A DNA stretch of 64,000 nt from Minisyncoccota bacterium (GTDB lineage Bacteria; Patescibacteriota; Minisyncoccia; Phycocordibacterales; UBA9973). Under the pieces are notes generated by a model. It was not told the DNA's origin. It searched no databases and saw only the letters and a program-made list of their open reading frames with translations. The stretch's first letter is position 1. Each line of letters starts with the position of its first letter. The DNA lies in the NCBI GenBank assembly GCA_028718635.1, contig JAQULK010000001.1:242944-306943 (forward strand), written 5' to 3'. The position numbers and the translations under genes were made by a program. Positions 501-60,446 of this stretch are shown here, in pieces.

Positions 501-622
501 ATCCCGTTAGAAGTCCTATAGTTAATTAAAATCACAACTAGTGATATAATGAAGTCATGTCTTGTAGTCTTTATTATTTAATTTACTACGGAAATCTAAA
601 GATTTCCTACTTCTAACGGGAT
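501..622 (+). repeat. start-codon-embedding inverted-repeat element, copy 1 (ATCCCGTTAGAAG ... CTTCTAACGGGAT)
   Basis: Perfect 13-bp terminal inverted repeats at 501-513 and 610-622. The ATG of the downstream gene (621-623) shares its A and T with the right repeat. The interior is AT-rich and contains a GGAAATC-TAAA-GATTTCC sub-hairpin. It is flanked by direct ATGAAT(CCC). Confidence 0.8.
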
Positions 623-3389
623 GAATCCCTCATTCTTTAGAGAGATGCCGAAGTTTAAAAGTCCTGACGAGGAGCTGGATTATTTGCGTGCTCATGTGAA
701 AGCCAGAGAGGAAGAGCTTATAAACACAGGGCATATAGAACATGCTACAGAGAATGCTGCCCATGGCGTAATCAGTGAATATAAAAATATACCAGCCGAA
801 CAATTAATTCATAAAAATAATCTAATAAATGAAAAAGAGGCGGAAGGTATCGTGTTAAAACTAAAGCCGGAATCTCATGATAGCGTGATGGAAGAACTTT
901 TGGGAATTGTTATTACTAAAGGAGTTCGCAATGCCCTTTCTGTGGTGGAAATGATGAACAATCCACACGTGGATGATGATTTTCACAGAATTCTTATTCA
1001 GTATCTAAAAACTGGGGTGGCAAAATTAGATTTGCGAGAAGATTCTCCTATTTATAAGGCTCTCCATATGACCCTTTTCGAAATTACTCTTCCGCCACCA
1101 GAGGAAGAAGCAGACAAATCGAAAAGTTTTAAAGAATTTATCGGCGCCATGGAACAATTTTACGCTGGAATGCAATCCATCGGAGAAGGCAAATATAATG
1201 AAAAAGAAAACTATTTTACTTTGGAGATAGCCCTCGGCAATCAAAGCGATGAAGTCGTCGTCTATGCAGCTATTCCCAATAAATATCTTTCGCTTTTTGA
1301 AAAACAAATTTTGGCTTTTTATCACTATGCAAAAATCAAAGAAGTCGCGGATGATTACAATATTTTCAGCGAGAACGGCGGGTCAGTTGGCGCTTATGCG
1401 AGTTTTACCGAGCGCGCAGTGATGCCGATCAAAACTTATGACAATATTGAGCATGATCCTATGAATCCGATCTTGAATGTTTTTTCTAAATTGCAAACAT
1501 CAGGAGAAGGCGCGGCGATTCAGCTCGTGATAGCGCCAGCCGGAGATAAATTCATAAATGAATTTCACAAAATTTTAGATGATGTTAAAGACGGTACTTC
1601 GGTAAAACATGCAGATGATAATTTTTACAAATTCAATAAAGCTTTTTTAAAAGCAGGCAAAGGCTTAATGTTCGGTCATAAAGAAAAAAGCGAAGACGAG
1701 AAAAAAGAAAAATATATGAAAGGCAGGCGCGCGGTAGATGAGGGTGCTGCTGAAAAGATAGGAAACAAGATAAAAAGCACTATCATGAAAGCGAATATTC
1801 GAGTGATCGCTTCGGGAGGGACGCCGGAGCGCGCAGAGGCAATTTTACGGGAAATAGAATCTTCTTTTAATCAGTTTTCCGAAGCAGCCAGCAACTCTTT
1901 TGTTTTTGAACAAGCAAGAGGAGGCGAATTAAAAAAACTTTTCCATGATTTTTCTTATCGTACATTTTCTGCCGATAAAATATTGCCTTTGAATTTAAAA
2001 GAGCTTGCTTCAGTATTTCATTTCCCAGTCGGAATGGGGAGCCAGCCACAATTAAGAGAAGCCAAAGCAGGCATTGCTCCTGCTCCGATAGAAATGGGCC
2101 AAGAGGGAGTAATTCTTGGGGTAAACAGTTATAGAGGCAAAGATACCGAAATTCACCTTGCGCGCGAAGATCGCATGCGGCATTTTTATGTCATCGGCCA
2201 GACTGGTACTGGTAAGACGAACATTATGCTCAATATGATAACGCAGGACATTAAAAATGGAGATGGGTGTTGCTATATTGATCCGCATGGAACCGATATT
2301 CAAACGATCCTTTCTCGAATACCAAAAGAACGCATTGAAGATGTGGTTTATTTTGATCCAGCTTATACTGCGCGACCAATGGGCCTCAATATGCTCGAAT
2401 ATGATCCGAAATATCCGGAGCAGAAAACTTTTGTGGTGAATGAAATGATGGGAATCTTCAACAAGCTTTTCGATATGAAAGTCGGAGGCGGAGCGATGTT
2501 TGAGCAATATTTTAGGAATAGCGCCTTTTTAGTGATGGAAGATCCGGAGTCTGGTTCAACTTTGCTTGAGATTACCCGTGTCTTGGGTGATAAAAGTTTT
2601 CGTGATATGAAGCTCGCTAAATGCAAGAATCCTATCATCAAACAATTTTGGATTTCAGCAGAACAAACGACGGGGGATCAATCGCTCGCGAACTTTGTGC
2701 CTTACATTTCTTCTAAGTTCGACAACTTTATCAGCAATGACATCATGCGTCCAGTAGTGCTTCAACAAAATTCTGTTTTTAATTTCAGGAAAATTATGGA
2801 TGAGAAGAAAATTCTTCTAGTAAATCTTTCTAAGGGTAGACTGGGAGATATTAATGCGAACTTAATTGGTCTGGTGCTCGTCGGTAAGATTCAAATGGCA
2901 GCGCTTTCTCGCGTGGATATGTTTGGCAAACCTATGAATGATTTTTATTTATATATTGATGAGTTCCAAAATGTTACCACGGATTCCATTGCTTCTATCT
3001 TATCCGAAGCTCGAAAATATAGACTGTCTTTAAATATTGCGCACCAGTATATCACTCAGCTTGAAGAAAATATTAAAAATGCTGTTTTTGGCAACGTCGG
3101 ATCCATGGCAGTATTTCGAGTGGGCACCGAAGACGCCACTTTTTTAGAGCCGAAATTTAAGCCTCAATTTTCTGCTCGAGATATTACCAAGCTTGAGAAT
3201 CGAAATGCTTATATAAGTATGCTAGTAAATGGCCAACCAACAAAGCCATTTAATTTAAAAACTTTAGATGCAAAAAAAGGCAATCCAGATATTGTAGATA
3301 ATTTAAAAGAACTTTCCTATCTAAAATTTGGCCGAGACCGAGAAGAAGTAGAGGCGGAAATCATGGCAAGGTATTCGGGGATGGAGTAA
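621..3389 (+). CDS. large P-loop ATPase, VirD4/TraG/HerA-like (DUF87-type AAA-like domain) with an N-terminal domain of about 400 aa of unknown function
   Basis: 922-aa ORF. Walker A GQTGTGKT is followed by YIDPHG and a Walker B-like YLYIDEFQN, as in T4SS coupling-protein/HerA-like ATPases. Confidence 0.5.
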   Translation: MNPSFFREMPKFKSPDEELDYLRAHVKAREEELINTGHIEHATENAAHGVISEYKNIPAEQLIHKNNLINEKEAEGIVLKLKPESHDSVMEELLGIVITKGVRNALSVVEMMNNPHVDDDFHRILIQYLKTGVAKLDLREDSPIYKALHMTLFEITLPPPEEEADKSKSFKEFIGAMEQFYAGMQSIGEGKYNEKENYFTLEIALGNQSDEVVVYAAIPNKYLSLFEKQILAFYHYAKIKEVADDYNIFSENGGSVGAYASFTERAVMPIKTYDNIEHDPMNPILNVFSKLQTSGEGAAIQLVIAPAGDKFINEFHKILDDVKDGTSVKHADDNFYKFNKAFLKAGKGLMFGHKEKSEDEKKEKYMKGRRAVDEGAAEKIGNKIKSTIMKANIRVIASGGTPERAEAILREIESSFNQFSEAASNSFVFEQARGGELKKLFHDFSYRTFSADKILPLNLKELASVFHFPVGMGSQPQLREAKAGIAPAPIEMGQEGVILGVNSYRGKDTEIHLAREDRMRHFYVIGQTGTGKTNIMLNMITQDIKNGDGCCYIDPHGTDIQTILSRIPKERIEDVVYFDPAYTARPMGLNMLEYDPKYPEQKTFVVNEMMGIFNKLFDMKVGGGAMFEQYFRNSAFLVMEDPESGSTLLEITRVLGDKSFRDMKLAKCKNPIIKQFWISAEQTTGDQSLANFVPYISSKFDNFISNDIMRPVVLQQNSVFNFRKIMDEKKILLVNLSKGRLGDINANLIGLVLVGKIQMAALSRVDMFGKPMNDFYLYIDEFQNVTTDSIASILSEARKYRLSLNIAHQYITQLEENIKNAVFGNVGSMAVFRVGTEDATFLEPKFKPQFSARDITKLENRNAYISMLVNGQPTKPFNLKTLDAKKGNPDIVDNLKELSYLKFGRDREEVEAEIMARYSGME

Positions 3390-3477: not shown

Positions 3478-4008
3478 ATGACAAACACACAAGAAAGAAC
3501 ATTGGTTATTTTTAAGCCTGATGCAGTGCAGAGAGGGCTAGTAGGGGAAATATTGTCTCGTTTTGAAAAAGCCGGATTTAAAATTGTCGGTATGAAAATG
3601 CTGAGACCGGATCAAAAACATTATTTTCATCACTATGAAACTATAGGCAAAATGATTTCTCGCCATAATCAAAAGATTTTTGATATAACAGTTGAAATGA
3701 TGAGTGAAGGTCCTGTCATAGCTACCGTGTTAGAGGGAGTAGAAGCAGTTTCTTTTATAAGAAAAATGGTTGGTCCTACAGAATCAAAGAGCGCTTTACC
3801 TGGTACTATCCGAGGGGATTATTCTCATATGAGTTTTGCTCATGCTGACAAAGAGGATGTTGGGTTGCCAAACTTACTACACGCTTCTGGTGATACAGAA
3901 GAAGCAAAGTTAGAAATTGCGCATTGGTTCTCCGATAATGAACTTTTTGATTACGAAACAGTACACGAAAAGTTTACTCAAACCCAAAAACATCATTCAA
4001 GAAAATAA
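3478..4008 (+). CDS. ndk: nucleoside diphosphate kinase
   Basis: TLVIFKPDAVQRGLVGEILSRFEKAGFKIVGMKM ... the NDK fold signature and a conserved His region (YSHMSFAHADKED). Confidence 0.9.
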   Translation: MTNTQERTLVIFKPDAVQRGLVGEILSRFEKAGFKIVGMKMLRPDQKHYFHHYETIGKMISRHNQKIFDITVEMMSEGPVIATVLEGVEAVSFIRKMVGPTESKSALPGTIRGDYSHMSFAHADKEDVGLPNLLHASGDTEEAKLEIAHWFSDNELFDYETVHEKFTQTQKHHSRK

Positions 4009-4400: not shown

Positions 4401-5765
4401 ATGAAAAAAACAGCCAAAATAACATTTTGCGGGGGGGTAGGCACAGTAACGGGTGCTAATTTTCTTTTAGAGATTGACGGCAAGAAAATTCTAGTCGATT
4501 GCGGTCTTACTCAAGGAGACAAAATGGATGACGCCATCAATTGGGAGCCTTTTATATACGATCCGAAAGAAATAGATATTCTTTTTGTGACCCATGGGCA
4601 CATCGATCACTTGGGAAGGATTCCAAAATTAATCAATGACGGATTCCATGGAAAAATTTATTCCACCGAACCGACAAAAGGACTTGCCTTGCCTATGCTT
4701 GAAGATACTGCAGGCATCTTGAGCAACTACACTGCCCTCGGTTTAGATAAAATCTACACAGCGGAAAATATAAAATCAGCTTTATCGCTTTGGCAGGGCT
4801 TTACCTATCACGAGACGATAAAAATCACAGATAATTTAGAGGTTGTTATGTTAAATGCCGGGCATATTTTAGGTTCGGCGATGATTGAGTTTCTTTATAA
4901 TGGAAAGAAAATTCTTTTTACCGGAGATCTAGGCAACAGTCCTTCGCCGATCCTTCCTGATACAGAAAAAGTCACTGATGCGGATTATTTAATAATTGAA
5001 AGTGTTTATGGAGATAGGAATCACGAGTCGAGAGAAGATCGCAAAAGATTCTTGGAAGAAGCAATTGAAGATAATTATAAAAGAAAGGGTACATTAATTA
5101 TTCCTACTTTTTCTCTCGAGCGTTCTCAGGAGCTTTTGTTTGAATTGGATGATTTGGTCACTAATAATCGCATTCCAATGATGCCTATTTTTTTAGATTC
5201 TCCTTTGGCTATTCGTTTGACTGAAGTTTTCAAAAAATATAAAAGTTATTTTAATGAGAATGCGCAAAAAGTGATACATCCTGGTAGACATCTTTTTGAT
5301 TTTCCGGGGCTTCACGACACTTTGCAATCCAAAGAATCGCAAATGATTAGAAATGTGCCCAATCCTAAAATAGTTATCGCTGGGTCCGGAATGTCGACTG
5401 GCGGACGTATCGTGCATCATGAAAGACATTATTTGCCAGACCCAAACAATACTTTGCTTTTGACTGGGTATCAATCTGTCGGCACCCCGGGGCGTCTAAT
5501 AGAGGAAGGAATGAAGACAGTGCGAATAACTGGAGAAGATGTGGCCATAAGGTCGCATATTGTAAAGATTTCTGGGTACTCAGGACACAAAGATTCGGAT
5601 GGGCTTGTAAATTTTGTGGGAGATATGGAAGATACAGTCAAGAAAGTTTTTGTGGTTATGGGAGAGCCAAAATCATCGATGTTTTTAGTTCAGAAATTAA
5701 GAGATTGTTTAGGCCTTGAAGCTTTTGCTCCGGAGAGAGGGGAGAGCGTGGTTTTGGAATGTTAA
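4401..5765 (+). CDS. metallo-beta-lactamase fold, beta-CASP family ribonuclease (RNase J-like)
   Basis: ILVDCGL...HGHIDHLG MBL motif, with later HxH/D motifs and beta-CASP-like spacing. 454 aa. Confidence 0.6.
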   Translation: MKKTAKITFCGGVGTVTGANFLLEIDGKKILVDCGLTQGDKMDDAINWEPFIYDPKEIDILFVTHGHIDHLGRIPKLINDGFHGKIYSTEPTKGLALPMLEDTAGILSNYTALGLDKIYTAENIKSALSLWQGFTYHETIKITDNLEVVMLNAGHILGSAMIEFLYNGKKILFTGDLGNSPSPILPDTEKVTDADYLIIESVYGDRNHESREDRKRFLEEAIEDNYKRKGTLIIPTFSLERSQELLFELDDLVTNNRIPMMPIFLDSPLAIRLTEVFKKYKSYFNENAQKVIHPGRHLFDFPGLHDTLQSKESQMIRNVPNPKIVIAGSGMSTGGRIVHHERHYLPDPNNTLLLTGYQSVGTPGRLIEEGMKTVRITGEDVAIRSHIVKISGYSGHKDSDGLVNFVGDMEDTVKKVFVVMGEPKSSMFLVQKLRDCLGLEAFAPERGESVVLEC

Positions 5766-5886
5766 TCCCGTACGAAGTCCTTCAGTTAATTAAAGTCATA
5801 ATAAATGTTATACTAAGACAGTATTTTAAAGTCGTTATTAATAATTTAACTACGGAAATCTAAAGATTTCCTACTTCGTACGGGAT
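5765..5886 (+). repeat. start-codon-embedding inverted-repeat element, copy 2 (ATCCCGTACGAAG ... CTTCGTACGGGAT)
   Basis: 13-bp inverted repeats at 5765-5777 and 5874-5886. ATG is at 5885. The interior is about 70% similar to copy 1, including the GGAAATCTAAAGATTTCC sub-hairpin. Both arms carry compensatory TTAG>TACG and CTAA>CGTA changes. Confidence 0.8.
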
Positions 5887-6505
5887 GGATTCTAAAATTA
5901 ATTTTCCAGACAAACATGGACATAACCAAATAAAGATTTGTGTTTCAGGCGCGGCGGAGACAGGAAATTGCGGAGTAGACGCACTAGAAAAAGCCAAAGA
6001 ACTTGGACGCGAGATTGCGCGTCAGGGAGCCGTGCTTGTAACAGGCGCCACGACCGGATTTCCTTTTTGGGCAGCGATGGGAACGAAAGAAGCAGGCGGG
6101 ATTTCTGTGGGGATATCTCCTGCAGCTTCAGAAAAAGAACACGTCGAAGTGTACAAGCTTCCTCTAGATTATATGGATTTGATTATTTATACTGGTTTTG
6201 GTTATCCCGGGCGCGATCTTTTACTTACTCGCAGCTCTGACGCAGTTATTTGCGGTTGCGGGCGCATAGGTACTATTCACGAGTTCACAGTTGCTTTTGA
6301 AGATGGAAAACCTATTGGTATTTTCAAAGGTACATGGGAAATGGGAGCAGAACTTGAAGAGATTATTGCCAAGGGGCATCGCCCAAATTCTAAAATAGTC
6401 GTCGGGAATGATCCAAAGGAACTTTTAGAAGACGTTATTGCCCTTGTTAGAAAAGACAAGATACCGGAATACAAAATTACAAAAACTCCAATGCCCAGCA
6501 AGTAA
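5885..6505 (+). CDS. Rossmann-fold SLOG/TIGR00725-like nucleotide-binding protein
   Basis: KICVSGAAETG...VLVTGATTGFPFWAAMGTKEAGG...VICGCGRIGTIHEF resembles TIGR00725/LOG-like proteins. Confidence 0.45.
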   Translation: MDSKINFPDKHGHNQIKICVSGAAETGNCGVDALEKAKELGREIARQGAVLVTGATTGFPFWAAMGTKEAGGISVGISPAASEKEHVEVYKLPLDYMDLIIYTGFGYPGRDLLLTRSSDAVICGCGRIGTIHEFTVAFEDGKPIGIFKGTWEMGAELEEIIAKGHRPNSKIVVGNDPKELLEDVIALVRKDKIPEYKITKTPMPSK

Positions 6506-7168: not shown

Positions 7169-7699
7169 TTATTTTTTCTCTATTGTTGTTGTTAAACCTT
7201 TTGGACCCCTTTTGTAATTATCTGATATTTTATAATCTTCGGTAATTAAATGTAAAACTCTATCTAAACGTTCTCTCAAAAATTTTTCATCCATATATTT
7301 CGCGCGTCCTGCGAGGAAAAGCTCAACTTTGATTCTGTGGCCTTCCTTTATCCACTTTGAAGCAGTTTTTGCTTTCAGCTCTAAATCATGATCTCCTGTG
7401 CCTATTTTTATTTGGATGGACTTGGTTTCCGTCTTATTTGAGCTAGCCTTAGCCTTTTTTAATTTCTTGGCAGTTTCATATTGGTATTTGCCGAAGTCCA
7501 TCAGCTTGGCGACTGGGGGATTGCCATTCGGGGATATCTCAATTAAATCCAATCCTTTGCTTTGAGCTAGCTCTAAAGCATCTCTGATACTTAAAACACC
7601 GAGATTTTTATTTTCACTGTCTAAAACCCGCAGTTCTTTCGCTCGTATTTGGTTGTTTATTCTTTCTCGCAATTGATATAGTAGGCTTTGACTACACAA
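7169..7699 (-). CDS. infC: translation initiation factor IF-3 (true start may be a non-ATG codon further upstream)
   Basis: LDLIEISPNGNPPVAKLMDFGKYQYE and the C-terminal domain are conserved. Operon order is infC-rpmI-rplT. Confidence 0.85.
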   Translation of the reverse strand: MCSQSLLYQLRERINNQIRAKELRVLDSENKNLGVLSIRDALELAQSKGLDLIEISPNGNPPVAKLMDFGKYQYETAKKLKKAKASSNKTETKSIQIKIGTGDHDLELKAKTASKWIKEGHRIKVELFLAGRAKYMDEKFLRERLDRVLHLITEDYKISDNYKRGPKGLTTTIEKK

Positions 7700-7759
7700 G
7701 GAATATTAGCTTATTTGGACGTTAAAGTCAAACATTATGTGCAATTTCAACAAAATGGC

Positions 7760-7786
7760 TTGACTTAATTATTTGCATAGTATATC
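7760..7786 (+). promoter_or_regulatory. candidate promoter upstream of the toxin-antitoxin-like cassette (-35 TTGACT; -10 TATATC or TAGTAT)
   Basis: TTGACT at 7760-7765. The spacing to the -10 candidates is ambiguous. Confidence 0.3.
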
Positions 7787-7844
7787 ATTATTGATATCTT
7801 ACGATAAATAAGAAAATTGTAGGTCGAATATTAAAAATAACTAT

Positions 7845-8198
7845 ATGGAAATTATTATTCCTGAAAATAATAAAGATGGTCAGAAAGTTAGCGATTTTTT
7901 GAAATCTAATTTTACTGATATGGAGCGAGTTGAGGTTTTTGAAAGAATGGAGACTTATGAAAAATTTAGTATTCTAGAACTTATACAAAAACACAAAATT
8001 GAAAAGTTGAAGGGATCTCTATATGAGCTCAGGATCCCAATAGCTAAAACTAAATTAAGATTTTTTGGTGTAGTGTGTAAAGATAAACTTATACTAATAT
8101 ATGTTTTTAAGAAAAAAACCCAACAGATACCAAGAAGAGAATTAAAAATAGCAAAAACAAAAGCATCTTTATTGGATATTAATAATTACAAAAAATAA
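7845..8198 (+). CDS. RelE/HigB-like toxin of the phage Gp49 (PF05973-like) family
   Basis: The GSLYELRI...LRFFGVVCKDKLILIYVFKKKTQQIPRRELKIA motif is typical of Gp49/HigB-like toxins. It lies immediately upstream of an XRE HTH gene. Confidence 0.55.
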   Translation: MEIIIPENNKDGQKVSDFLKSNFTDMERVEVFERMETYEKFSILELIQKHKIEKLKGSLYELRIPIAKTKLRFFGVVCKDKLILIYVFKKKTQQIPRRELKIAKTKASLLDINNYKK

Positions 8199-9129: not shown

Positions 9130-9135
9130 ATTTTG

Positions 9136-9532
9136 TGGAGATGGGGGAAATTGAATCCCCGTGCAGAAGGTTATTGTAAAGAAGTCTACATATATAGCGC
9201 GCTTTTTTGTTTAGATTAAAAAATTCTTAAGCGAGCCAAATATTTTTTAATCGAGTTCTTTTGTTTCGAAAAAAAGTCAGAACAGTCTTTTCTCTATCCC
9301 GATAATATTATGCCTCATCTTATATATCGGAAGTCTATAAGAGAGACACCAGCCGAGCTTACGCGAAGGCTGGAGCGAAAGCGAAATCCTTCATACCGAA
9401 GTAAGGAGAAAGTGCAGCTTTTGCTTTAGCAGTCAATTTTGCAATTAACATTTGGACGAATTTTTACGAGATTACGTCCATGCTCGATATGCATCAATAA
9501 CAAATGGCCAACTGTCTATGCCTGGCATCCCC
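9136..9532 (-). ncRNA. ssrA: candidate tmRNA (ssrA), about 397 nt
   Basis: On the minus strand, 5' GGGGATG pairs with 3' CATCTCC to give a 7-bp acceptor stem (one G-U), followed by discriminator A. The T-arm is GGGGA-TTCAATT-TCCCC. An internal ORF GCT AAA GCA AAA GCT GCA ... GCT CCA GCC TTC GCG TAA encodes a tag ending AFAPAFA*. It lies adjacent to smpB. Confidence 0.55.
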
Positions 9533-10152: not shown

Positions 10153-12105
10153 TTGTGCTATTATCATCCTATGGATTTGAATTTTTTCAACAAAAAGGAA
10201 CCAAATAATAAAGGAAAAAAAATTCCACCCAAGAGCAATTTCGGCGGGAATATTGCCGGCGCGATAGTTTTTTTTATGCTCATTACAGCGCTTTATTTAG
10301 TGGTGTCTGGAGACGGGAAAACAACTCCCCAAGTTTCGATTTCTGAATTAGCCAATAGTGTCGTGGCAGGGAATGTCAAAACCATCTTAGTGGAAGGGGA
10401 TAAGCTCACTATCACTTATCAAAATGGCGATGTTAAAGAATCTAAAAAAGAAGTCGGCGCGCCGCTTTCGCAAACACTTTTTGATTATGGGGTAACATCT
10501 GCCGCGATTGCAAAAACAGACATTCAAATAAAAAACGAGAGTGGTTTTATGTTTTGGCTGGTAAATTTGCTGCCGTTTATTTTGCCGATAATTTTTATTT
10601 TAATTTTCTTTTGGTATTTGTCTCGGCAAGTCAAGGGCGCAGGAATGCAGGCTTTTACTTTTGGACAATCCAAAGCTCGTCTCACGAATCCGGATGATAA
10701 AAACAATCGGGTCACCTTTAAAGATGTGGCTGGTTGCAAAGAGGCTAAAGAAGAATTAAAAGAAATAGTAGATTTCTTAAAAAGTCCCAAAAAGTTTTTA
10801 GATATTGGAGCCAGAATTCCCAAAGGAGTCATTTTAACCGGCGCCCCAGGGACTGGCAAGACTTTGCTCGCGCGAGCAGTGGCAGGAGAAGCGAACGTGC
10901 CATTTTTTCATCTTTCTGGAAGTGAGTTTGTGGAAATGTTTGTCGGAGTCGGAGCTTCTAGAGTGCGAGATCTTTTTAAAATGGCCAAAAAAGCGGCGCC
11001 TGCTATTATTTTCGTAGATGAAATAGACGCCATAGGCCGTACTCGCGGAGGAGGATTCGGAGGAGGGAATGACGAACGCGAACAGACCTTAAATCAAATT
11101 TTAGTAGAGATGGATGGTTTTGAGCCGAACGACAAAGTAATAGTGATGGCAGCGACTAATAGGCCAGACGTGCTAGATCCGGCACTCATTCGTCCAGGGC
11201 GTTTTGATCGAAAAGTTATGCTTGATTTGCCTGATCGTACCGATCGCGAAGAGATATTGAAAATTCATGCATTAAAAAAACCGTTAGCTGAAGATATAAA
11301 TTTGAAATTGATTGCTGAACGCACTCCCGGTTTTTCCGGCGCGGATTTGTATTCACTTATGAACGAAGGCGCCATCTTGGCGGCTCGAGAAAATCGCAAG
11401 AAAGTTTTTCAATTTGATTTGATTCGCGCGATTGAAAAAGTGATGCTTGGTCCAGAGCGAAAAAGTCATTTACTTTCCAAAAAAGAAAAAGAAATTACTG
11501 CTTACCATGAAGCCGGGCATGCGATCGTGGCATCGGTGCTTCCGCATGCAGATCCGGTGCACAAAGTTTCTATTATCGCTCGCGGAAATGCCGGGGGATA
11601 TACTTTAAAGTTACCGCTTGAAGAACGACGTTTGCAATCCAAAAAAGAATTTATTGATGACATCGCTATGTCCCTCGGCGGATATGTGGCTGAGCAAATG
11701 ATTTTCGGAGACATCACCACCGGACCGTCGAGTGATTTGCAAGTAGCGACAAATCTAGCGCGAGCGATGGTGACGAGATGGGGGATGTCCGATGTTATCG
11801 GACCGATAGCTTTAGTGGATTCTCCCGGTAGGTCTCAATATGGTGAAATGTCTGCTGAAAAAGAATTTTCTGAAGCCGTTTTCACTAAAGTCGATAGAGA
11901 AGTTTCGAGAATCATAAATGATGGGTTAAAGACTGCGCAAAAAGTGTTGGAAGAAAACAAAAAAGCATTTACCGCCATTGCTTTAAAACTTATAGAAGTG
12001 GAAACTTTAGAACAGGAAGACTACGAGAAAATTTTGGTTGCTCATGGTATTATGTTAAAAAAGAAAGATGTTATAGAAACATCCGTCCTTAGCTCAGTTG
12101 GTTAG
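10153..12105 (+). CDS. ftsH: ATP-dependent zinc metalloprotease FtsH (start possibly at the MDL codon at 10171; the 3' end runs about 23 nt into the tRNA)
   Basis: N-terminal TM segments, AAA module GAPGTGKT...[11 protein letters not shown], and the zinc motif HEAGHA. Confidence 0.9.
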
Positions 12106-12156
12106 AGCACAGAGCTTATACCTCTGGGGTCCTTGGTTCGAATCCAAGAGGACGGA
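12083..12156 (+). tRNA. tRNA-Ile, apparent anticodon TAT (UAU)
   Basis: Manual fold: acceptor CCGTCCT/AGGACGG, D-arm GCTC-AGTTGGTTA-GAGC, anticodon arm CAGAG-CTTATAC-CTCTG, T-arm CTTGG-TTCGAAT-CCAAG, discriminator A. Confidence 0.7.
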
Positions 12157-12220
12157 CACGAAGAGTCTTTTTTAAAAAATCTCTAAAAAGCCAAATGTCA
12201 AGAAGTTTTACATAACATGC

Positions 12221-19728: not shown

Positions 19729-20007
19729 ATAGTTTATAATATACCCATGGACACACTTCTACAATCTCAAGTTTTCTTTTTTATATCTTCTATGGGCTTT
19801 GTTGTTTTGTGGATTTTAACAGCGATATTTTTGTTTTACCTTATTCGCATCACTCGCGCCTTTTCAAGGATTATGGATAAAATAGAAGATAATATAAATG
19901 AAATTGGTGATACTACGAAAGAAATGTTGGGAGATTTACGAGATAGTGCATTATTTAGTTTCTTTTTAAGAAAAAAAAGAAAAAGTCGCAAGGGTCGTGA
20001 AGATTAA
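19717..20007 (+). CDS. small membrane protein (hypothetical)
   Basis: 96 aa with one long hydrophobic helix. Confidence 0.3.
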   Translation: MKLHIVYNIPMDTLLQSQVFFFISSMGFVVLWILTAIFLFYLIRITRAFSRIMDKIEDNINEIGDTTKEMLGDLRDSALFSFFLRKKRKSRKGRED

Positions 20008-20113
20008 TCCCGTTAGAAATTTACAAAACGGGAAAATATTATTAAATTAACAATAATCAACTGTCTTTATATATAAAAATAAATGTACAGATAGTATGAT
20101 TTCTAAACGGGAT
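20007..20113 (+). repeat. start-codon-embedding inverted-repeat element, copy 3 (ATCCCGTTAGAAAT ... ATTTCTAAACGGGAT, one bulged A)
   Basis: Inverted repeats at 20007-20020 and 20099-20113. ATG is at 20112. A proximal AAACGGGA at 20027-20034 can alternatively pair with the left repeat. Confidence 0.75.
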
Positions 20114-20486
20114 GAAAAAAAATAACAAAAAAATGTCAGTTGGGAAAAAGGTAGCAGTGGGAGCAGCAGGGGCAGCAGCTATTAGCGCAGTTGGAGCTGG
20201 AGTATATTATTTATTCGGTCCCAAAGCTAAAGTGCACCAAAAGAAAACAAAAGCTTTGATCTCCAAGATGAAAAAAGAGATAGACAGAGAAGTAAAAAAA
20301 GCCAGGAAGGTTACCGCCCCTATTTATGACGACGTCGTAAATGCCATTTCTTCAAATTACGCTAAACAATATAAAATTCACGAAGGAGATATAAAAGCTC
20401 TTGCCAAGAAAATGAAAGATGAATGGAAAGGAGTGAATAAAGTTGCTAAAAAAACTGTAAGAAATATTAAAAAGAAAAGTCTATAA
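20112..20486 (+). CDS. lysine-rich membrane-anchored protein (hypothetical)
   Basis: N-terminal hydrophobic segment VGKKVAVGAAGAAAISAVGAGVYYLF followed by a charged tail. Confidence 0.35.
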   Translation: MKKNNKKMSVGKKVAVGAAGAAAISAVGAGVYYLFGPKAKVHQKKTKALISKMKKEIDREVKKARKVTAPIYDDVVNAISSNYAKQYKIHEGDIKALAKKMKDEWKGVNKVAKKTVRNIKKKSL

Positions 20487-22944: not shown

Positions 22945-23158
22945 TTTGCGGGCAGTTTGGTACGTCGCTCAAGCCTTGAGGATCTTCAGATTTGAATGAG
23001 TTTTTTGGAGTCGTGCGAGGATATGCCAGATATATTAAGAAACAGGAGTGATATTGAGAAGAGAGAGCTATTGGGATGTTTGAAGAGTAAAATATTGCTG
23101 GCAATTACGCACAAAAAACAAGCTTAAAATCTAAGCATCTCGTGCTATCTGTTGCTTG

Positions 23159-23247
23159 CGGAGCCGGGCGGATTCGAACCGCCGAGGGGTTTTAAAGCCC
23201 CTGCCTCTTTAGCAAAGAGGTACGTTAGACCACTCTGACACGGCTCC
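23159..23247 (-). tRNA. tRNA-Ser (GCT)
   Basis: Minus-strand fold: acceptor GGAGCCG/CGGCTCC, anticodon arm CCTCT-TTGCTAA-AGAGG, long variable arm, T-arm GGCGG-TTCGAAT-CCGCC, discriminator G. Confidence 0.8.
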
Positions 23248-23317: not shown

Positions 23318-23404
23318 GGAGAGATGGGTGAGTGGTTGAAACCAACAGTTTACTAAACTGTCGTCCCTTTAAAAGGACCGAGGGTTCGAATCCCTCTCTC
23401 TCCG
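23318..23404 (+). tRNA. class II (Ser-type architecture) tRNA with an unusual anticodon loop TTACTAA, apparent anticodon ACT
   Basis: Acceptor GGAGAGA/TCTCTCC, 3-bp D-stem GGT/ACC with loop GAGTGGTTGAA (parallel to E. coli tRNA-Ser), anticodon arm ACAGT-TTACTAA-ACTGT, long variable arm GTCC..GGAC, T-arm GAGGG-TTCGAAT-CCCTC, G73. Confidence 0.6.
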
Positions 23405-23492
23405 CAGTCAGTATTTAGTATCGGAAGACTCTGATGCTCGACACTTTCTTTAGTGTGATAACTATTGGTTTTTAATATATACTTTACTCAGT

Positions 23493-33403: not shown

Positions 33404-33585
33404 TTGACCTAACCCCTAAAATCTTTAGGATATGGTCTTATGAAAACTCGCTACAAGATAAAGAACCCTTCGTCAGGGTACTTGTAGCGAGTCATAATCG
33501 GAAACGGTTATGGGTGGTCGAAAGACCATCGCCCGGCGGAGGGCTTTTTGTCTCTCTAGGCAACTAATAAAACTCGCTACAAAAA
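33404..33585 (+). promoter_or_regulatory. promoter-like site (-35 TTGACC, -10 TAGGAT) plus a structured leader with three copies of AACTCGCTACAAG (two direct, one inverted) and a terminator-like GCCCGGCGGAGGGC-T5
   Basis: Repeats at 33442-33455, 33481-33494 (inverted) and 33572-33585 (abutting the ATG at 33586). A GGTGGTC-GAAA-GACCATC tetraloop hairpin sits at 33513-33530. Confidence 0.4.
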
Positions 33586-55014: not shown

Positions 55015-55055
55015 ATGTTATACTTAAGGGATATTTTAACATATATTAAAAATGG

Positions 55056-55177
55056 ATCCCGTTAGAAGCCGCGATCGCAATTTAAAATATAAACAAAATA
55101 TGAAATCAAGGAAAATAGAAATTAATAACTTAAAATATCAGATATGCGAATTGATCGCGATCTGCTTCTAACGGGAT
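55056..55177 (+). repeat. start-codon-embedding inverted-repeat element, copy 4 (extended GC stem GAAGCCGCGATCGC), preceding pilM
   Basis: Inverted repeats at 55056-55068 and 55165-55177. ATG is at 55176. It is flanked by direct ATGGAT. Confidence 0.8.
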
Positions 55178-56309
55178 GGATAATCCATTAAAACCATTAA
55201 AAAACTTTTTTTCTGGCTTAGGCAAGCTTGGAAGCGGCGGAGAAAATTCTGCTGTAGGAATTGATATTGGTTCTTCCGCGATTAAAGTAGTTGAAATTAA
55301 GTTGAAAGAAGGCAAAGCCGTGCTGGAGACTTACGGATCGATAGCCCTTGGCCCTTATGCTGACATTGATGCCGGCGGAGTTACCAATCTCCCAGTAGAA
55401 AAAATTGTTTTAGCTTTGAAAGAAGTTTTGAAGCAATCCGACATCACAAGCACTTCTGCCGCTCTCTCTCTTCCTATCCAATCGAATTTGATTTTCACCA
55501 TTGAGCTTCCAGCCAAAATAGACGAGAAAGAAATAGCTGCCATTGTTCCCATAGAAGCCCGTAAATATATTCCAGTTCCCATCACCGAAGTTTCAGTCGA
55601 TTATTTTATCATTCCTAAAAAAGAAGCTTCTTTTGAAGAAATGAACGCCGAGGATGCGGAAAAAAAGAAAGAAAAAACAAATGTCTTGGTTGTCACGACT
55701 CAAAACGACGCCGTGGCCAAATACCGTTCAATCGTTTCCGCATGCAACCTCTCAGCTTCTTTTTTTGAAATTGAGATTTTTTCTTCCATTCGAGCAAATT
55801 TTGAACATGAGCTTTCGCCGGTTTTACTGGTTGATTTTGGCGCGTCCCGCACCAAGCTTTCCATTGTCGAATTCGGCATGGTTACAAACTATCACACCAT
55901 AGACAGGGGAGGGGCGGACATAACCAATTCCATCTCCAAATCCCTTTCCATTTCTTTTTCTGAAGCGGAAAAAATGAAAAAAGAATTCGGTTTTTTTGGA
56001 AATCCCGCAGAAAAAACCTTAGTCGATATTATCAAGGTGCACATTGATTATATTTTTTCTGAAACCAATAATGTGCTGCTTGGATATGAAAAGAAAAATA
56101 ATAGAACTATCAGCAAGGTAATATTTACAGGCGGAGGCGCCTTGATGAAAGGGCTGTCTGAAGTCGCCGTAAATAATTTTCGCGCAGAAATAGAAATCGG
56201 GCGTCCTTTTTCGAAAGTGGGCGCGCCTGCATTTTTAGAAAAAGTTTTTTCGACTATTGGTCCAGAATTTGCAGTTGCTTTGGGCTTAGCCTTGCGAAAA
56301 TTAAAATAA
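55176..56309 (+). CDS. pilM: type IV pilus assembly protein PilM (actin-like ATPase fold)
   Basis: VGIDIGSSAIKVVEIK... Confidence 0.8.
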   Translation: MDNPLKPLKNFFSGLGKLGSGGENSAVGIDIGSSAIKVVEIKLKEGKAVLETYGSIALGPYADIDAGGVTNLPVEKIVLALKEVLKQSDITSTSAALSLPIQSNLIFTIELPAKIDEKEIAAIVPIEARKYIPVPITEVSVDYFIIPKKEASFEEMNAEDAEKKKEKTNVLVVTTQNDAVAKYRSIVSACNLSASFFEIEIFSSIRANFEHELSPVLLVDFGASRTKLSIVEFGMVTNYHTIDRGGADITNSISKSLSISFSEAEKMKKEFGFFGNPAEKTLVDIIKVHIDYIFSETNNVLLGYEKKNNRTISKVIFTGGGALMKGLSEVAVNNFRAEIEIGRPFSKVGAPAFLEKVFSTIGPEFAVALGLALRKLK

Positions 56310-56375
56310 ACCCGCACACTTGTGCACAAGTGTGCGGGTAAAGTTATACACAATTTACTTCTTTGAAATCCTCTT

Positions 56376-57008
56376 TTGCTGTATAATAAAGAAGGTAAGT
56401 GTAAAAATATGGAACAAAATTTTCAAACCTCATTTATCCCCAAAAAACCGATAATAAAAGAAAATACTGCTTATGGTGGACGTTCTATTGGTGTTTTTTT
56501 TATTATCTCTCTATTTATTTTTTTTGCCGTTCTTATCGTAACAGGAGGACTTTATTTTTATAAAGGAATTTTAGTAAAGAAAATTGCCAATATGGAAAAT
56601 ACTCTGAACTTAGCCAAAAATCGTTTTGAGCCTGCAAAAATAACCGAGCTTCAAACTTTTGATAAACGTTTGATTTATTCCAGCGAAATTCTAGCCAAAC
56701 ACATCACCGTCGTTCCTATTTTTAATGCCCTAGAACAGCTCACCATGAAAAGTGTCCGCTATACCAACTTTAGTTATAACATGGAAAGCGGTGACAAAAA
56801 TACCATAAATGTAAAAATGTCCGGAGTTGCTATCGGTTATCGTTCAATCGCCCTTCAATATGATTTGTTTGCAAAAAATAAAAATTTGATTGATCCTATT
56901 TTTTCAAATTTAACGCTTGATAATAGCGGTAATGTTCTTTTTGATCTACAATTTTCAGTCGATCCAAGTTTTGTTAATTATAAACAAACCCTTATGGTTA
57001 AAAGTTAA
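56376..57008 (+). CDS. PilN-like pilus assembly protein (single TM)
   Basis: Position after pilM. Single TM plus a periplasmic domain. Confidence 0.45.
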   Translation: MLYNKEGKCKNMEQNFQTSFIPKKPIIKENTAYGGRSIGVFFIISLFIFFAVLIVTGGLYFYKGILVKKIANMENTLNLAKNRFEPAKITELQTFDKRLIYSSEILAKHITVVPIFNALEQLTMKSVRYTNFSYNMESGDKNTINVKMSGVAIGYRSIALQYDLFAKNKNLIDPIFSNLTLDNSGNVLFDLQFSVDPSFVNYKQTLMVKS

Positions 57009-57644: not shown

Positions 57645-58076
57645 ATGCCAAAAATTAAAAACATTATAATATTCGTAGCAATAGCATTAATATTCTTTTT
57701 AATTTATCTTTTTTTTGCAAAACCAGAAGGAGAACAAGCCAGTCTAGTGTCTTCCGGGGCAAACGCCACTTTGCCAAACATGGATGGCTCTATCCCAAAT
57801 CCAAGTACTTCAAATACCAACTCTGAAGTCGCAAAAGATTTTCTTGTAATATTTTCTAATATCAAAAATATAAAGTTAAATGATGCTATTTTTTCTGATC
57901 CAGCCTTCAATAGCTTGCATGATTCTAGTATTATACTTATCCCAGATGGTACCGAAGGTAGGCCAAATCCATTTGCTCCATTTGGTAATGATGCCGCACC
58001 TGCACCAGCATCTACAACTGTAAATAATTCAACTTCCGCTCCAACTGCTCCAGCATCGTCTAATTCTAAAATATAA
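57645..58076 (+). CDS. TM-anchored Ser/Thr/Pro-rich protein (PilP-like position)
   Basis: N-terminal TM. The C-terminus is rich in P, A, S and T. Confidence 0.3.
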   Translation: MPKIKNIIIFVAIALIFFLIYLFFAKPEGEQASLVSSGANATLPNMDGSIPNPSTSNTNSEVAKDFLVIFSNIKNIKLNDAIFSDPAFNSLHDSSIILIPDGTEGRPNPFAPFGNDAAPAPASTTVNNSTSAPTAPASSNSKI

Positions 58077-58195
58077 TCCCGTTAGAAGCCGCGGTCGCAG
58101 TAATATAAAAAAATATGTTTATAAAAAATATAAAATTTAATAAAATAATAAAGCATAGTCACGGCATACTGACCGCGACCTGCTTCTAACGGGAT
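58076..58195 (+). repeat. start-codon-embedding inverted-repeat element, copy 5 (extended GC stem GAAGCCGCGGTCGC), preceding pilB
   Basis: Inverted repeats at 58076-58088 and 58183-58195. ATG is at 58194. The left repeat starts at the last A of the upstream TAA. Confidence 0.8.
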
Positions 58196-59936
58196 GAGTT
58201 TTTTAGAAGAATTAGCAAAAAAAGGTTTAATAAATGAAAGCCAAATTGGTGAAATCAATATTCGTGCAAGAAAAGATCATAATGGAGATATTGAGGAAAC
58301 CCTCGTTGAATTAGGCATAGGAGAGGATAAAATTCTTGAAGCAAAAGGAGAATATTTGGGAATTCCAGTAAGAAACGTAAACTCTAAAGAAATATCTTTT
58401 GATGTATTGAAATATATTTCAGAAGATTCAGCCGCTCATTATCATTTTGTGCCTTTGGCATTAAAAGATGGAGTACTAGAAGTGGGGGTGCTTGATCCGG
58501 AAAACATCCAAGCGATAGATGCCTTACAATTTATTTCAACGAAATTAGGTATTCCTTTTAAGATATTTTTGATTTCTAAAAGCAACTATGAAAGTGTAAT
58601 GCAATCCTTCAAAGGATTGGGAAGCCAAGTTGAAGAAGCTCTAAAAGAGTTAGGCAATGAAGAAACAATAAATATCAAAAGTGTCAGTGAGGAAAATTTA
58701 AGCAAAGAAATAAAAAACATAAAAGAAGGAGAAGAGGTAAAGATGGTAGAAGATGCGCCAGTAATAAAAATTGTTGCAGTTATTTTACGTAATGCCATAG
58801 AAAGAAATGCGTCTGATATTCATATTGAACATACCGGCGAAAAAGTTAAAGTGCGTTTTCGAGTGGATGGTATCCTGCATACCTCGATAGTATTACCGCC
58901 CACTGTTTATGGCGGGATCGTAGCGCGTATAAAAATTCTTTCTAAATTAAGACTGGACGAGAAGCGCAAGCCTCAAGACGGATCTTTTAGTGCGAATATC
59001 GATGAACGCAAAATTGATTTTCGTGTTTCTACTATGCCCGCATATAATGGGGAGAAAGTAGTTATGCGTATCTTGGATTCCGAGAAAGGAGTCAAACCTC
59101 TTGATCAACTTGGACTGTCAGAAGTAAACTTGAATATAATTAGGGAAGCAATCAAGAAGCCTTATGGACTCATCTTGATCACTGGTCCTACCGGATCTGG
59201 TAAATCTACCACCCTATATTCAATGATGAATGAACTTAATAAAGAGGAGAGCAATATTGTATCCTTGGAAGACCCCGTGGAATATCATATGCTAGATATA
59301 AATCAGTCCCAAGTGATGCCAGAAATTGGTTATACATTTGCCTCAGGGCTTCGTTCCATTCTTCGCCAAGATCCCGATATAATAATGGTTGGAGAAATAC
59401 GAGACAAAGAAACAGCCCAGCTTGCGATTCAGGCGGCTTTAACCGGACACCTTGTGCTTTCTACTCTGCACACTAATAATGCAATCGGCGCGATCCCTCG
59501 TCTTGTTGATATGGGTATCGATCCATACCTTATTGCGCCGACCTTGATTGTTTCTATTGCTCAACGTCTGGCTAGGATGACCTATCCGGCTTCACGCAAA
59601 GAAATACCATTAGAAGAAAGTGTAAAAAAACAAATAGAAGAACAGTTTAAAGATTTGCCTGACGAATTTAAGCCGAAAATAGGGGATAAAATGTATGAAG
59701 TCGTGCCGTCCACCGATTGTCCTTCTGGAACACGAGGACGAATTGCTATTTTCGAAATGTTCAAAATTGATAAGGAGATGCAGGCGGTAATCTTGAAAAA
59801 TCCGACGGATGTGGCAATTTATAAATTAGCTCGAAGTAAAGGAATGTTGATGATGAAAGAAGATGCGATATTAAAATCTTTGCAAGGATTAATTCCATTT
59901 GCAGAAGTGTATAATTTTAGCAACGAGAGCGAATAG
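58194..59936 (+). CDS. pilB: type IV pilus assembly ATPase PilB/GspE
   Basis: GPTGSGKSTTLYS, the GspE signature, a tetracysteine-like region, and the N-terminal GSPII_E_N domain. Confidence 0.85.
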   Translation: MSFLEELAKKGLINESQIGEINIRARKDHNGDIEETLVELGIGEDKILEAKGEYLGIPVRNVNSKEISFDVLKYISEDSAAHYHFVPLALKDGVLEVGVLDPENIQAIDALQFISTKLGIPFKIFLISKSNYESVMQSFKGLGSQVEEALKELGNEETINIKSVSEENLSKEIKNIKEGEEVKMVEDAPVIKIVAVILRNAIERNASDIHIEHTGEKVKVRFRVDGILHTSIVLPPTVYGGIVARIKILSKLRLDEKRKPQDGSFSANIDERKIDFRVSTMPAYNGEKVVMRILDSEKGVKPLDQLGLSEVNLNIIREAIKKPYGLILITGPTGSGKSTTLYSMMNELNKEESNIVSLEDPVEYHMLDINQSQVMPEIGYTFASGLRSILRQDPDIIMVGEIRDKETAQLAIQAALTGHLVLSTLHTNNAIGAIPRLVDMGIDPYLIAPTLIVSIAQRLARMTYPASRKEIPLEESVKKQIEEQFKDLPDEFKPKIGDKMYEVVPSTDCPSGTRGRIAIFEMFKIDKEMQAVILKNPTDVAIYKLARSKGMLMMKEDAILKSLQGLIPFAEVYNFSNESE

Positions 59937-59973: not shown

Positions 59974-60375
59974 ATGGAAAGTGAAAAAAAGAAAATTTTA
60001 ATAGTCGATGACGATAGTTTCCTTTTAGATATGTATGCGCTTAAATTCAGCCAAAATAATTTTGAAGTTTACACTGCAAGCAATGGTGTTCATGCATTAG
60101 AAAAACTCAAAGGGGGACTATCTCCCGATATTCTTTTGATTGATATAATTATGCCGGAAATGGACGGTTTTGAAACCTTAACTCAAATAAATGCGGAGAA
60201 GTTGTGTCCAAATTCTGTAAAAATAATTTTATCCAATAAAAGTGAACAAAAAGATATAGATGAAGGCAACAAATTGGGGGTAGTGGGTTATATTGTGAAA
60301 GCAAATTTCACTCCAGGAGAAGTTATTGAACAAGTTGAAAAAATTTTAGAACAAAAAAATCATGGATCCCGTTAG
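59974..60375 (+). CDS. response regulator receiver domain protein (PilH/CheY-like)
   Basis: ILIVDDD...DILLIDIIMPEMDGFE. The TAG stop lies inside the left repeat of element copy 6. Confidence 0.75.
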   Translation: MESEKKKILIVDDDSFLLDMYALKFSQNNFEVYTASNGVHALEKLKGGLSPDILLIDIIMPEMDGFETLTQINAEKLCPNSVKIILSNKSEQKDIDEGNKLGVVGYIVKANFTPGEVIEQVEKILEQKNHGSR

Positions 60376-60446
60376 AAATAAAAAAATATTGAAAACGGGT
60401 TATAATAAGTTAAGTATTATTAATTAATATAAATTTCTAACGGGAT
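60366..60446 (+). repeat. start-codon-embedding inverted-repeat element, copy 6 (ATCCCGTTAGAAAT ... ATTTCTAACGGGAT), preceding pilT
   Basis: Inverted repeats at 60366-60379 and 60433-60446. ATG is at 60445. It is flanked by direct ATGGAT. A proximal AACGGG at 60402-60407 allows alternative pairing. Confidence 0.8.

Follow-up and report, generated by a model that had tools for sequence, protein, structure and literature searches.

We analysed a 64,000-nucleotide stretch of the genome of a Minisyncoccota bacterium (GenBank assembly GCA_028718635.1, contig JAQULK010000001.1, positions 242,944 to 306,943 of the forward strand; hereafter the window) and found that the six inverted-repeat elements it carries directly in front of genes belong to a large, apparently undescribed family of hairpin-forming mobile elements of 80-125 bp present across the Patescibacteria (Candidate Phyla Radiation, CPR). 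We consider it probable that the repeats are non-autonomous, hairpin-forming and start-codon-specific mobile elements, similar to miniature inverted-repeat transposable elements (MITEs) and to REPINs, throughout this group. Comparison of filled with empty sites shows, at the level of the DNA, insertion at ATG-RA, which is the start codon together with the beginning of codon 2. Targeting of the start codon itself and rebuilding of the ATG by the end of the element are new, and so are a stop codon placed in the arm beside the new ATG and a 12-nt arm core conserved superphylum-wide.

A first-pass annotation made from the letters of the window alone had listed six elements, and all six exist where it placed them, on the plus strand. 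Copy 1 (501-622, 122 bp) precedes a TraG/VirD4-like ATPase gene (621-3389), copy 2 (5765-5886, 122 bp) a SLOG cluster-4 gene (5885-6505), copy 3 (20007-20113, 107 bp) a 124-aa open reading frame (ORF; 20112-20486) for which no Pfam match was found, copy 4 (55056-55177, 122 bp) pilM (55176-56309), copy 5 (58076-58195, 120 bp) pilB (58194-59936) and copy 6 (60366-60446, 81 bp, of the short class) pilT (60445-61503). The five gene identities proposed earlier agree with Pfam. From the ORF starts at 621, 5885, 20112, 55176, 58194 and 60445 it follows that the last AT of the palindrome belongs to the ATG in six of six copies, as had been claimed. The starts of PilM, PilT and the SLOG protein are not mis-called, because their N-termini align from residue 1-5 with orthologues elsewhere.

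The perfect terminal inverted repeats described for every copy are present in five. Copy 3 has a perfect left arm and is not a perfect repeat because its right arm holds one extra A (TTTCTAAACGGGAT), which forms a 1-nt bulge. Stops of upstream genes abut or fall within the left arm at copies 2, 3, 5 and 6, again as described: at copy 2 the stop of a beta-CASP gene ends on the first A of the element, and at copy 6 the TAG of a response-regulator gene falls within the arm. A strict paired-arm pattern (ATCCCGTNNGAA...TTCNNACGGGAT, arms 51-101 nt apart, 12 nt of each arm fixed) matched the window (36% G+C) five times and never in 100 shuffles.

Insertion at the start codon

The pattern was scanned against one genome per prokaryotic species, and 8-kb genome blocks (identified by L-numbers below; 942 kb in total) were fetched. 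Without any G imposed after the palindrome by the search, 124 of 130 elements make an ATG with the next base, on exactly one side, and an ORF of at least 60 codons follows in 115 of those 124. By crude ORF calling, 64% of the elements lie at the first ATG of an ORF that is complete and no shorter than 70 codons, compared to 34% expected, an excess over random use of non-genic ATGRA sites with p = 2e-14. None lies inside a gene, though 77% of ATGRA sites are genic. For the window, ATG-RA opens 42 of 67 crudely called ORFs.

The genes downstream are diverse (136 Pfam families among 110 proteins, e.g. SSB, TopA, HPF, PilC, ClpP, L4, AlaRS, H+-pyrophosphatase and epimerases), and the element set is therefore not a regulon; the same count makes unlikely the earlier suggestion of a protein-binding operator pair. 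On the upstream side, 67 of 119 elements (about 56%) follow a same-strand ORF whose end is no more than about 40 nt from their left end. Of these ORFs, nine stop at the TGA of the left ATGA and eight at a TAG in the left arm, in agreement with the stops seen at copies 2, 3, 5 and 6.

The palindrome lies within a short direct repeat, ATGR[ATCCCGTTAGAAR...YTTCTAACGGGATGR]A, in general form ATGR[ATCCCG...CGGGATGR]A. Among 121 elements oriented by their gene, the left flank reads A in 99, T in 103, G in 98 and R in 114, and the right flank G in 121, R in 111 and A in 112. ATGn stands directly 5' of the palindrome in 90 of the 121, and in 88 of these 90 the variable base equals the base after the second ATG. 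Anchored at the ATG, the repeat is ATGA in 8 copies, ATGRA in 90 and ATGCAA in 5. The first-pass annotation had noticed such repeats at three window copies, and they are present there on the plus strand: ATGAAT at copy 1 (497-502, a relic start codon that we call AUG1, and 621-626), and ATGGAT at copy 4 (55052-55057 and 55176-55181) and copy 6 (60362-60367 and 60445-60450).

Orthologous sites with and without the element were found in both directions. The pilM gene is filled in the window (ATGG[..]ATGGATAATCC) and empty in L003 (ATGGATAATCC, at L003:1417(-)). The reverse is seen for a pilN-like gene, which is filled in L003 (at 182, minus strand; ATGG[AT..ATGG]AGCAAAATTTTC, i.e. ATGG[..]ATGGAGCAAAATTTTC) and empty in the window (ATGGAACAAAATTTTC), where the unoccupied target ATGGA stands at its start (56409-56413, plus strand). 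The pilT gene is filled in the window (ATGG[..]ATGGATTATAAA) and empty in L016 (ATGGATTACACA; site ATGGATTACAC, L016:2372(-)), and a gene filled in L081 (ATGA[..]ATGAACATACACCC) has an empty orthologue in L118 (ATGAACATACACCC). Filled and empty orthologues differ by exactly this insertion, and the empty sites hold a single ATGRA. Because the protein N-termini are identical in filled and empty alleles, the second ATG (AUG2) is the functional start.

Further evidence of mobility comes from copies that share a genome. On one contig (L050), two copies 96.5% identical stand before the adk and L29 genes between unrelated flanks, which is recent transposition into ATGA stop/start overlaps of a ribosomal-protein operon. 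Tandem elements have one ATGA between neighbours, as they would if the target were regenerated with every insertion. The elements are short and without transposase coding, have terminal inverted repeats and a flanking duplication, and occur as dispersed copies with insertion polymorphism (six copies in 64 kb, the filled and empty sites, the adk/L29 pair and the tandem re-insertions), all of which are features of MITEs. Taken together, the filled and empty orthologous sites, the near-identical copies at unrelated genes, the tandem re-insertions and the flanking ATGRA repeat in 88 of 90 typical copies bear out the earlier option of a start-codon-targeting, MITE-like mobile cassette with target-site duplication.

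The same genes are repeatedly occupied in different genomes, often with another interior. SSB is occupied in four of the five genomes seen (L062, L077, L094, L101) and PilC in L016, L040 and L019; repeated occupation was also noted in L008, L095 and L119, examples of orthologous genes with different interiors, and at HPF, TopA and epimerases. The recurrence points to hot spots or to turnover at sites already occupied.

Arms, interiors and spread of the family

The family consensus is ATGR[ATCCCGTTAGAA-R-N ... N'-Y-TTCTAACGGGATGR]A, a 14-bp terminal stem with a 12-nt near-invariant core around a variable, AT-rich interior. Element size is 77-126 bp under the search pattern, which bounded the range (one copy of 133 bp lies outside it), and lengths cluster in three classes near 80, 103-110 and 119-123 bp. 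Coding within the elements is limited to upstream ORFs (uORFs) of at most 40 codons. The 942 kb hold 151 short arm pairs of 69-133 bp. Unpaired arms at random positions, which had been proposed as the check on the pairing, were not what we found: canonical arms are practically always paired, and where an arm stands alone, which is rare, its partner is degenerate or the block ends there.

Where the arms vary, they vary together. Position 13 is A:T in 61 elements and G:C in 53; position 14, free of the pattern, is T:A in 67, C:G in 34, A:T in 9, G:C in 4 and T:G in 5; and a Watson-Crick pair is formed at each of these two free positions in 114 of 121. Arm positions 8/9 are TA/AT or AT/CG, and a complementary variant GAG/CTC at position 12 was found outside the pattern. 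In 75 of 121 the ungapped stem measures exactly 14 bp. A mismatch is usual at position 15, with 5' C and 3' T in 45 elements and never the reverse.

The double change in copy 2 (TTAG>TACG on the left arm, CTAA>CGTA on the right) is real, and the earlier argument that it reflects selection on arm complementarity is backed family-wide. It is not private to that copy: TACG/CGTA recurs in many genomes as one of several complementary arm types, it is combined with various interiors in several genomes, and L063 holds a hybrid. The SLOG orthologue in L009 is preceded by an element of the same interior sub-family as copy 2, but with TTAG arms. Since one genome can hold several arm types, as the window does, it is apparently the complementarity that is maintained. 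This pattern favours the folded form as the putative functional or mobile species. Predicted folds of the window elements pair the two ends, with z-scores from -3.8 to -7.4.

Interiors fall into sub-families that are common to distant lineages. The interiors of copies 1 and 2, noticed earlier as alike, align without gaps and define sub-family A. They have in common the inner hairpin GGAAATC-TAAA-GATTTCC (590-607 and 5854-5871, plus strand) and an extended -10-like motif TGnTAnAnT (542-550 and 5806-5814, plus strand) that points towards the gene and is not family-wide. Elsewhere this hairpin co-varies as GAGAATC/GATTCTC and GGGAATC/GGTTCCC. In sub-family B the stem is lengthened to 21 bp, after a 4-nt bulge, by GCGRTC/GAYCGC, where R and Y co-vary; copy 4 carries it as GCCGCGATCGC / GATCGCGATCTGC and copy 5 has the G:C variant. 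The interiors are also polar. In 43 of 51 best pairs of related interiors (43 to 8), both members face the same way with respect to the gene, and the sense strand is purine-rich, with A exceeding T in 76 elements versus 39 and G exceeding C in 79 versus 35.

The six copies had been described as a family of one genome. The copies are real, and the family is spread over the superphylum: the paired-arm pattern matches at least 120 genome blocks, nearly all Patescibacteria by record titles and from many classes. Groups among the matches listed include Nomura-, Kaiser-, Kerfeld-, Zambryski-, Jorgensen-, Moran-, Levyi-, Doudna- and Campbellbacteria, Saccharibacteria and others. Judged by the names of metagenome-assembled genomes (MAGs) among the matches listed, G+C contents run from about 35% to 59%; several of these MAGs account for three to five of the listed copies each, and a few of the listed matches are labelled Omnitrophota, Planctomycetota, Smithellaceae or 'Gammaproteobacteria'. 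A viral collection gave a single match (L121), which is not at an ATG, and carriage of the element by phages was rejected.

Elements away from an ATG are mostly in blocks from outside the Patescibacteria (Omnitrophota L012 and L074, Smithellaceae L114) and on the viral contig L121; one more stands in L047, labelled Saccharibacteria. The arms of all these off-ATG copies are still complementary. Degenerate copies were also seen, and these still sit at start codons: L061 has a solo right arm directly on an ATG (2028-2045), and the ATG-proximal arm has decayed to ATCCCATTAAAAAT in L004 (about 3862-3951) and to ATCCCATTAGAAAT in L009 (about 7173-7240). A 330-nt composite element is present twice in one MAG (JAJYLD01; L054:7255-7585 and L098:500-835). 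Its two copies are 85% identical and each ends on an ATG, with outer arms around a nested CCCCGTTAGAA...TTCTAACGGGG helix and further conserved helices. No further copy of the composite was found among the fetched blocks, and no Rfam match at E<=10.

Rfam 15 has no family matching at the elements of the window at the gathering threshold, and three blocks with five elements gave no match at E<=1. Our searches of the open-access literature turned up neither the arm sequence in print nor a description of any palindromic element of CPR bacteria that is specific for start codons.

Expression signals, proposed mechanism and alternative explanations

Shine-Dalgarno cores are rare before both ATGs (6 of 90 for AUG1, 5 of 121 for AUG2). 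By eye such a core had seemed to precede AUG1, and the count rules this out; at ordinary gene starts of these genomes the Shine-Dalgarno signal is a weak positional peak. Counts of -10-like hexamers show a sharp peak at -12/-13 of AUG1, where 27 of 92 elements (about 30%) have one. This spacing is that of leaderless mRNAs, and many targets were therefore probably leaderless genes. At copy 1, the -10 box TATAAT within TGTTATAAT (an extended -10) ends 7 nt 5' of AUG1, which is the spacing expected for a near-leaderless start there. At 1054 crudely called, element-free ORF starts in the fetched blocks, -10-like hexamers likewise peak at -12 (95 compared to a background of about 17 per position), and many Patescibacteria genes look leaderless by this signature. 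AUG1 frames at sites with the leaderless -10 signature are no longer than the others.

The first-pass annotation had seen a -10 hexamer in every interior and proposed a mobile promoter. Across the family such hexamers number 66 on the sense and 62 on the antisense strand, and two-hexamer promoter matches in the window are at or below the level of shuffles. We therefore rejected the interior as a general promoter cassette; the promoter part of the proposal holds at best for sub-family A (copies 1 and 2), the only one with a conserved extended -10.

The right arm holds a TAA 4 nt before the ATG (TTC TAA CGGG ATG). The frame ending at this TAA is open for a median of 19 codons, compared to 9 and 12 codons in the other two. 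As a control we took this frame on the antisense strand, where the arms are identical: the sense frame is longer (median of 20 codons compared to 13, Wilcoxon p = 0.001), more often has an ATG (50 versus 16) and is more often open across the whole element (30 versus 9). It starts at AUG1 and spans the element in 18 elements, and starts at an internal ATG in 38. Window examples, all on the plus strand and ending 4 nt before the gene's ATG, are a 19-codon uORF in copy 1 (557-616; ATG at 621), a 39-codon uORF from AUG1 across all of copy 4 (55052-55171, with an internal ATG at 55100; ATG at 55176) and a 24-codon uORF in copy 5 (58115-58189; ATG at 58194). The open frame suggests translational coupling, and a coupling by termination and re-initiation is a statistical inference from these frames.

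The following sequence of events would account for these features. A mobilising enzyme would act in trans. In the insertion at ATG-RA, which the filled and empty sites show, the duplication keeps the old ATG (AUG1) on the left, together with the native promoter or the upstream stop codon, and the terminal A(T) of the element rebuilds an in-frame ATG (AUG2) on the right, so that the protein is unchanged; an upstream gene overlapping at ATGA retains its TGA. Transcripts carrying both arms would fold, and the stem would bury AUG2. At leaderless targets the transcript would then begin with AUG1, with the true start 80-125 nt downstream and paired in the stem. Ribosomes starting at AUG1 or at an internal AUG may melt this stem and, in many copies, terminate at the right-arm UAA (UUC-UAA-CGGG-AUG) and re-initiate at AUG2 without a Shine-Dalgarno sequence. 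The polarity of the interior (uORF frame, purine-rich sense strand, C/T asymmetry at position 15) may reflect compatibility with expression. Copies at start codons would persist because, once inserted, only precise deletion is tolerated. The folded hairpin is suggested as the substrate of the enzyme because the otherwise variable arm positions are strictly complementary.

Several results weigh against this explanation. No autonomous partner was found: in the 942 kb of 8-kb blocks, no arms more than 160 bp apart enclose an ORF, and no transposase or recombinase is linked to the arms. A regular-expression search found no IS200-type TnpA. Clustering of 705 ORFs revealed a Y1/RAYT-like HUH family (MPNHFHLLV ... 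YIHLNPV) in six of 121 blocks (L029:3586-4245, L085:6902-7615, L096:5803-6468, L093:3572-4231, L005:~7353-7958 and L033:5606-5830); it was rejected as the mobiliser, the genes bearing their own, different flanking hairpins. The repeat varies from 4 to 6 nt in 13 copies, an unusual outcome if the staggered cut is fixed. Very distant lineages share one and the same 12-nt core; either horizontal transfer is frequent or a host factor is conserved, and a host function would be an equally good fit. Mismatches of the G-U type and of the A-C type number 8 and 7, with no asymmetry pointing to sense RNA over DNA. About half of the copies have no uORF ending at the arm TAA, or have one without an ATG, and only about 42% have an AUG1 frame whose end lies within 25 nt of AUG2. 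Finally, the start-codon bias exceeds what the pentamer explains, and these data do not separate targeting from retention.

The hairpins at the Y1/RAYT-like genes (e.g. TACAAGGTTCAACCTTGTA in L029 and TGTCCAAAGCCGAGCTTTGGACA in L096) look like a second, separate hairpin-element system in the same genomes. The elements described here have an asymmetric target and a biased orientation. They may be moved by a DDE transposase that makes a 2-5-bp duplication or by a hairpin-dependent HUH or tyrosine-recombinase mechanism.

The repeats might instead be primarily host cis-regulatory RNAs, whose stem sequesters the start codon or serves as a site for RNase III or an RNA-binding protein, with a host protein reading the 12-nt core and mobility only the means of spread. 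Start-codon sequestration or RNase III processing, an option of the first-pass annotation, is possible, and we rate the wider host explanation as having a real chance, if on balance an unlikely one. It is consistent with the invariance of the core across phyla, the stem of most often exactly 14 bp, the position of AUG2 always within the stem, the fixed orientation of the interior with its purine-rich sense strand, and the recurrence at SSB, HPF, TopA and PilC with different interiors. Copy 1 (122 nt), moreover, aligns gap-free to an element in L007, with a mean column identity of 87% over four sequences compared to about 43% identity of the downstream proteins. The balance of mismatch types, the great diversity of the downstream genes, the many orthologues that lack the element with the start otherwise unchanged and the absence of a matching Rfam family argue against it. 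Slightly more doubtful to us is site-specific recombination of a folded single-strand hairpin, as in CTX-phage attP/Xer or integron attC/IntI, or by an HUH enzyme, where ATGRA would be the common crossover core and not a fill-in duplication. Variable arm positions are strictly complementary in each copy, even within one genome, the interior is variable with discrete lengths, R is the same on both sides in 88 of 90, and no transposase lies between the arms. The joined right and left ends would read CTTCTAACGGG-ATGRAT-CCCGTTAGAAG, an 11-6-11 layout that is physically present at tandem junctions and resembles dif or lox sites; the excised form would leave the junction CTTCTAACGGGATGRATCCCGTTAGAAG. 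Yet no recombinase is linked to the arms, nothing arm-like is conserved at the target outside ATGRA, the order GTTAGAA...TTCTAAC is reversed relative to attC R''(RYYYAAC)...R'(GTTRRRY), and the repeat length varies.

It is very improbable that ribosomes shunt across or bypass the element, as in T4 gene 60 or mitochondrial byps, taking off from AUG1 at the foot of the stem and landing on AUG2 with the element left untranslated. A matched ATGRA does stand on either side of a stable stem, the context for initiation at AUG1 is still the native one (27 of 92 have the leaderless -10 spacing) and AUG2 has no Shine-Dalgarno sequence, but insertion already explains the repeat, AUG1 is absent in about a quarter of copies (including window copies 2, 3 and 5), and frames that stay open up to the arm UAA suggest that the element is translated in the ordinary way. 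We give hardly any credence to an inverton, in which the arms would be invertase sites and the interior an invertible promoter switching the downstream gene. Inverted repeats around a short AT-rich segment directly 5' of genes, the extended -10 of sub-family A and the minority of interiors in opposite orientation (L051, L019:1783) would fit; the orientation bias across loci of 43 to 8, promoter motifs that are not general, and a flanking duplication with empty sites that indicate insertion do not. Interiors of 55-95 bp are also very short for recombinase-mediated inversion. Equally far-fetched is the idea that the paired arms are operators of a transcription factor for a type IV pilus or DNA-uptake regulon. 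Window elements precede pilM, pilB, pilT and the genes for the SLOG protein and the TraG-like ATPase, and others recur before SSB, TopA, RmuC and PilC; against this, elements also precede adk, L29, L4, AlaRS, the H+-pyrophosphatase, ClpP, epimerases and numerous other genes, their register with the ATG does not deviate by a single base, arm spacing varies from 55 to 100 bp, and there are orthologous pil genes without the element.

As an extension of the mobile-element explanation, we speculate, and regard as distinctly unlikely, that a conserved Patescibacteria machinery recognises the folded 14-bp hairpin and installs cassettes at translation starts, including leaderless 5'-terminal AUGs. The AUG pair, the stem and the in-arm UAA would then form a ribosome relay (termination-reinitiation or shunt), and the elements a start-codon-homing class, possibly domesticated to tune about a tenth of the genes.

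Relation to known elements and other features of the window

Among the closest known systems, Correia elements of Neisseria (CREE/NEMIS) are likewise non-autonomous, about 100-150 bp long, with terminal inverted repeats and a short duplication, often stand beside gene starts, are co-transcribed, fold into hairpins and can affect expression. They differ in their TA duplication, their 26-bp repeats of other sequence, their restriction to one genus and the lack of a start-codon register, whereas the elements described here target ATGRA at start codons, rebuild the ATG themselves and occur superphylum-wide. We rejected an assignment to Correia elements: the flanks are ATGR/GRA and not TA, and the arms are unrelated to the Correia consensus. 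REPINs, which are mobilised by RAYTs (REP-associated tyrosine transposases), are also hairpins of about 100 nt made of two inverted conserved ends, without a gene of their own, present in many copies and presumably moved in trans by a single-copy enzyme. Each REP in them, however, is a small palindrome with a GTAG tetranucleotide, there is no target duplication, and they occur anywhere between genes. The arms here are not self-complementary and lack GTAG, and the Y1-type genes in L029, L085, L096 and L093 have other hairpins; this candidate was rejected as well.

Rickettsia palindromic elements are small palindromic mobile elements tolerated at coding sequence with the reading frame preserved, but they are inserted within ORFs and translated into protein, whereas the elements here stand at codon 1 and leave the protein unchanged. 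In translational bypass (the T4 gene 60 gap, the byps of Magnusiomyces mitochondria) a mobile hairpin is inserted between matching codons and the gene survives through ribosome behaviour. Those gaps lie inside ORFs and need a take-off peptidyl-tRNA, while many copies here have translatable frames ending beside AUG2. Bypass of the gene 60 type was rejected: empty-site orthologues start at the same Met as AUG2, and nothing 5' of AUG1 belongs to the protein.

Integron attC and CTX-phage attP resemble the elements in having conserved complementary ends around a variable interior of 55-140 nt, with complementarity over sequence at some positions. They differ in that the order of core motifs is reversed here, no link to an integrase or Xer was found and the position is fixed at start codons. 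An attC site was rejected, GTTAGAA...TTCTAAC matching six of seven positions each in the opposite order, with core genes as neighbours (pilB, L29, adk). Palindrome-associated transposable elements (PATEs) derived from IS200/IS605 are short, strand-specific and hairpin-dependent and insert beside a fixed 4-5-nt target. They have a separate sub-terminal hairpin at each end and no duplication, whereas here one long-range stem joins the ends and R is the same on both sides in 88 of 90. The Neisseria DNA-uptake sequence resembles the arm at 9 of 12 positions. The arm as an uptake sequence was rejected because the arms are always paired and phase-locked to the ATG.

If the mobile-element explanation is true, this would be the first small mobile element known to land on a start codon and repair it with the first bases of a new ATG. 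It would account for the presence of a selfish element roughly every 10 kb, ribosomal-protein operons included, in bacterial genomes that are the most compact known. The copies would also provide a natural experiment on initiation (leaderless AUG1, hairpin-buried AUG2, uORF coupling) where the Shine-Dalgarno signal is weak and leaderless-type starts are many, and would set annotation traps for gene callers in the form of duplicated ATGs, upstream genes ending in arms and spurious small ORFs. The invariant 12-nt core would mark CPR DNA and give a handle for finding the enzyme, and an enzyme that places cargo exactly at ATG-RA would be an attractive tool for genome engineering.

Apart from the elements, the window encodes a LOOT RNA (33406-33530, plus strand, 80 bits), a tmRNA (9133-9532, minus strand, 124 bits) and three tRNAs. 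These are a tRNA-Ile with anticodon UAU (12083-12157, plus strand) and a divergent tRNA-Ser pair (23158-23247, minus strand, and 23318-23405, plus strand), to one of which ARAGORN gives the anticodon ACU. Two perfect G+C-rich palindromes unrelated to the elements were also seen. One (ACCCGCACACTTGTGCACAAGTGTGCGGGT) lies directly 3' of the pilM stop at about 56310-56339, and a second (TTCCGGACGTTGGACGTCCG...CGGACGTCCAACGTCCGGAA) lies 5' of pilC at about 61506-61550, with a similar one 5' of pilC in L018. These palindromes may be terminators or another repeat family.

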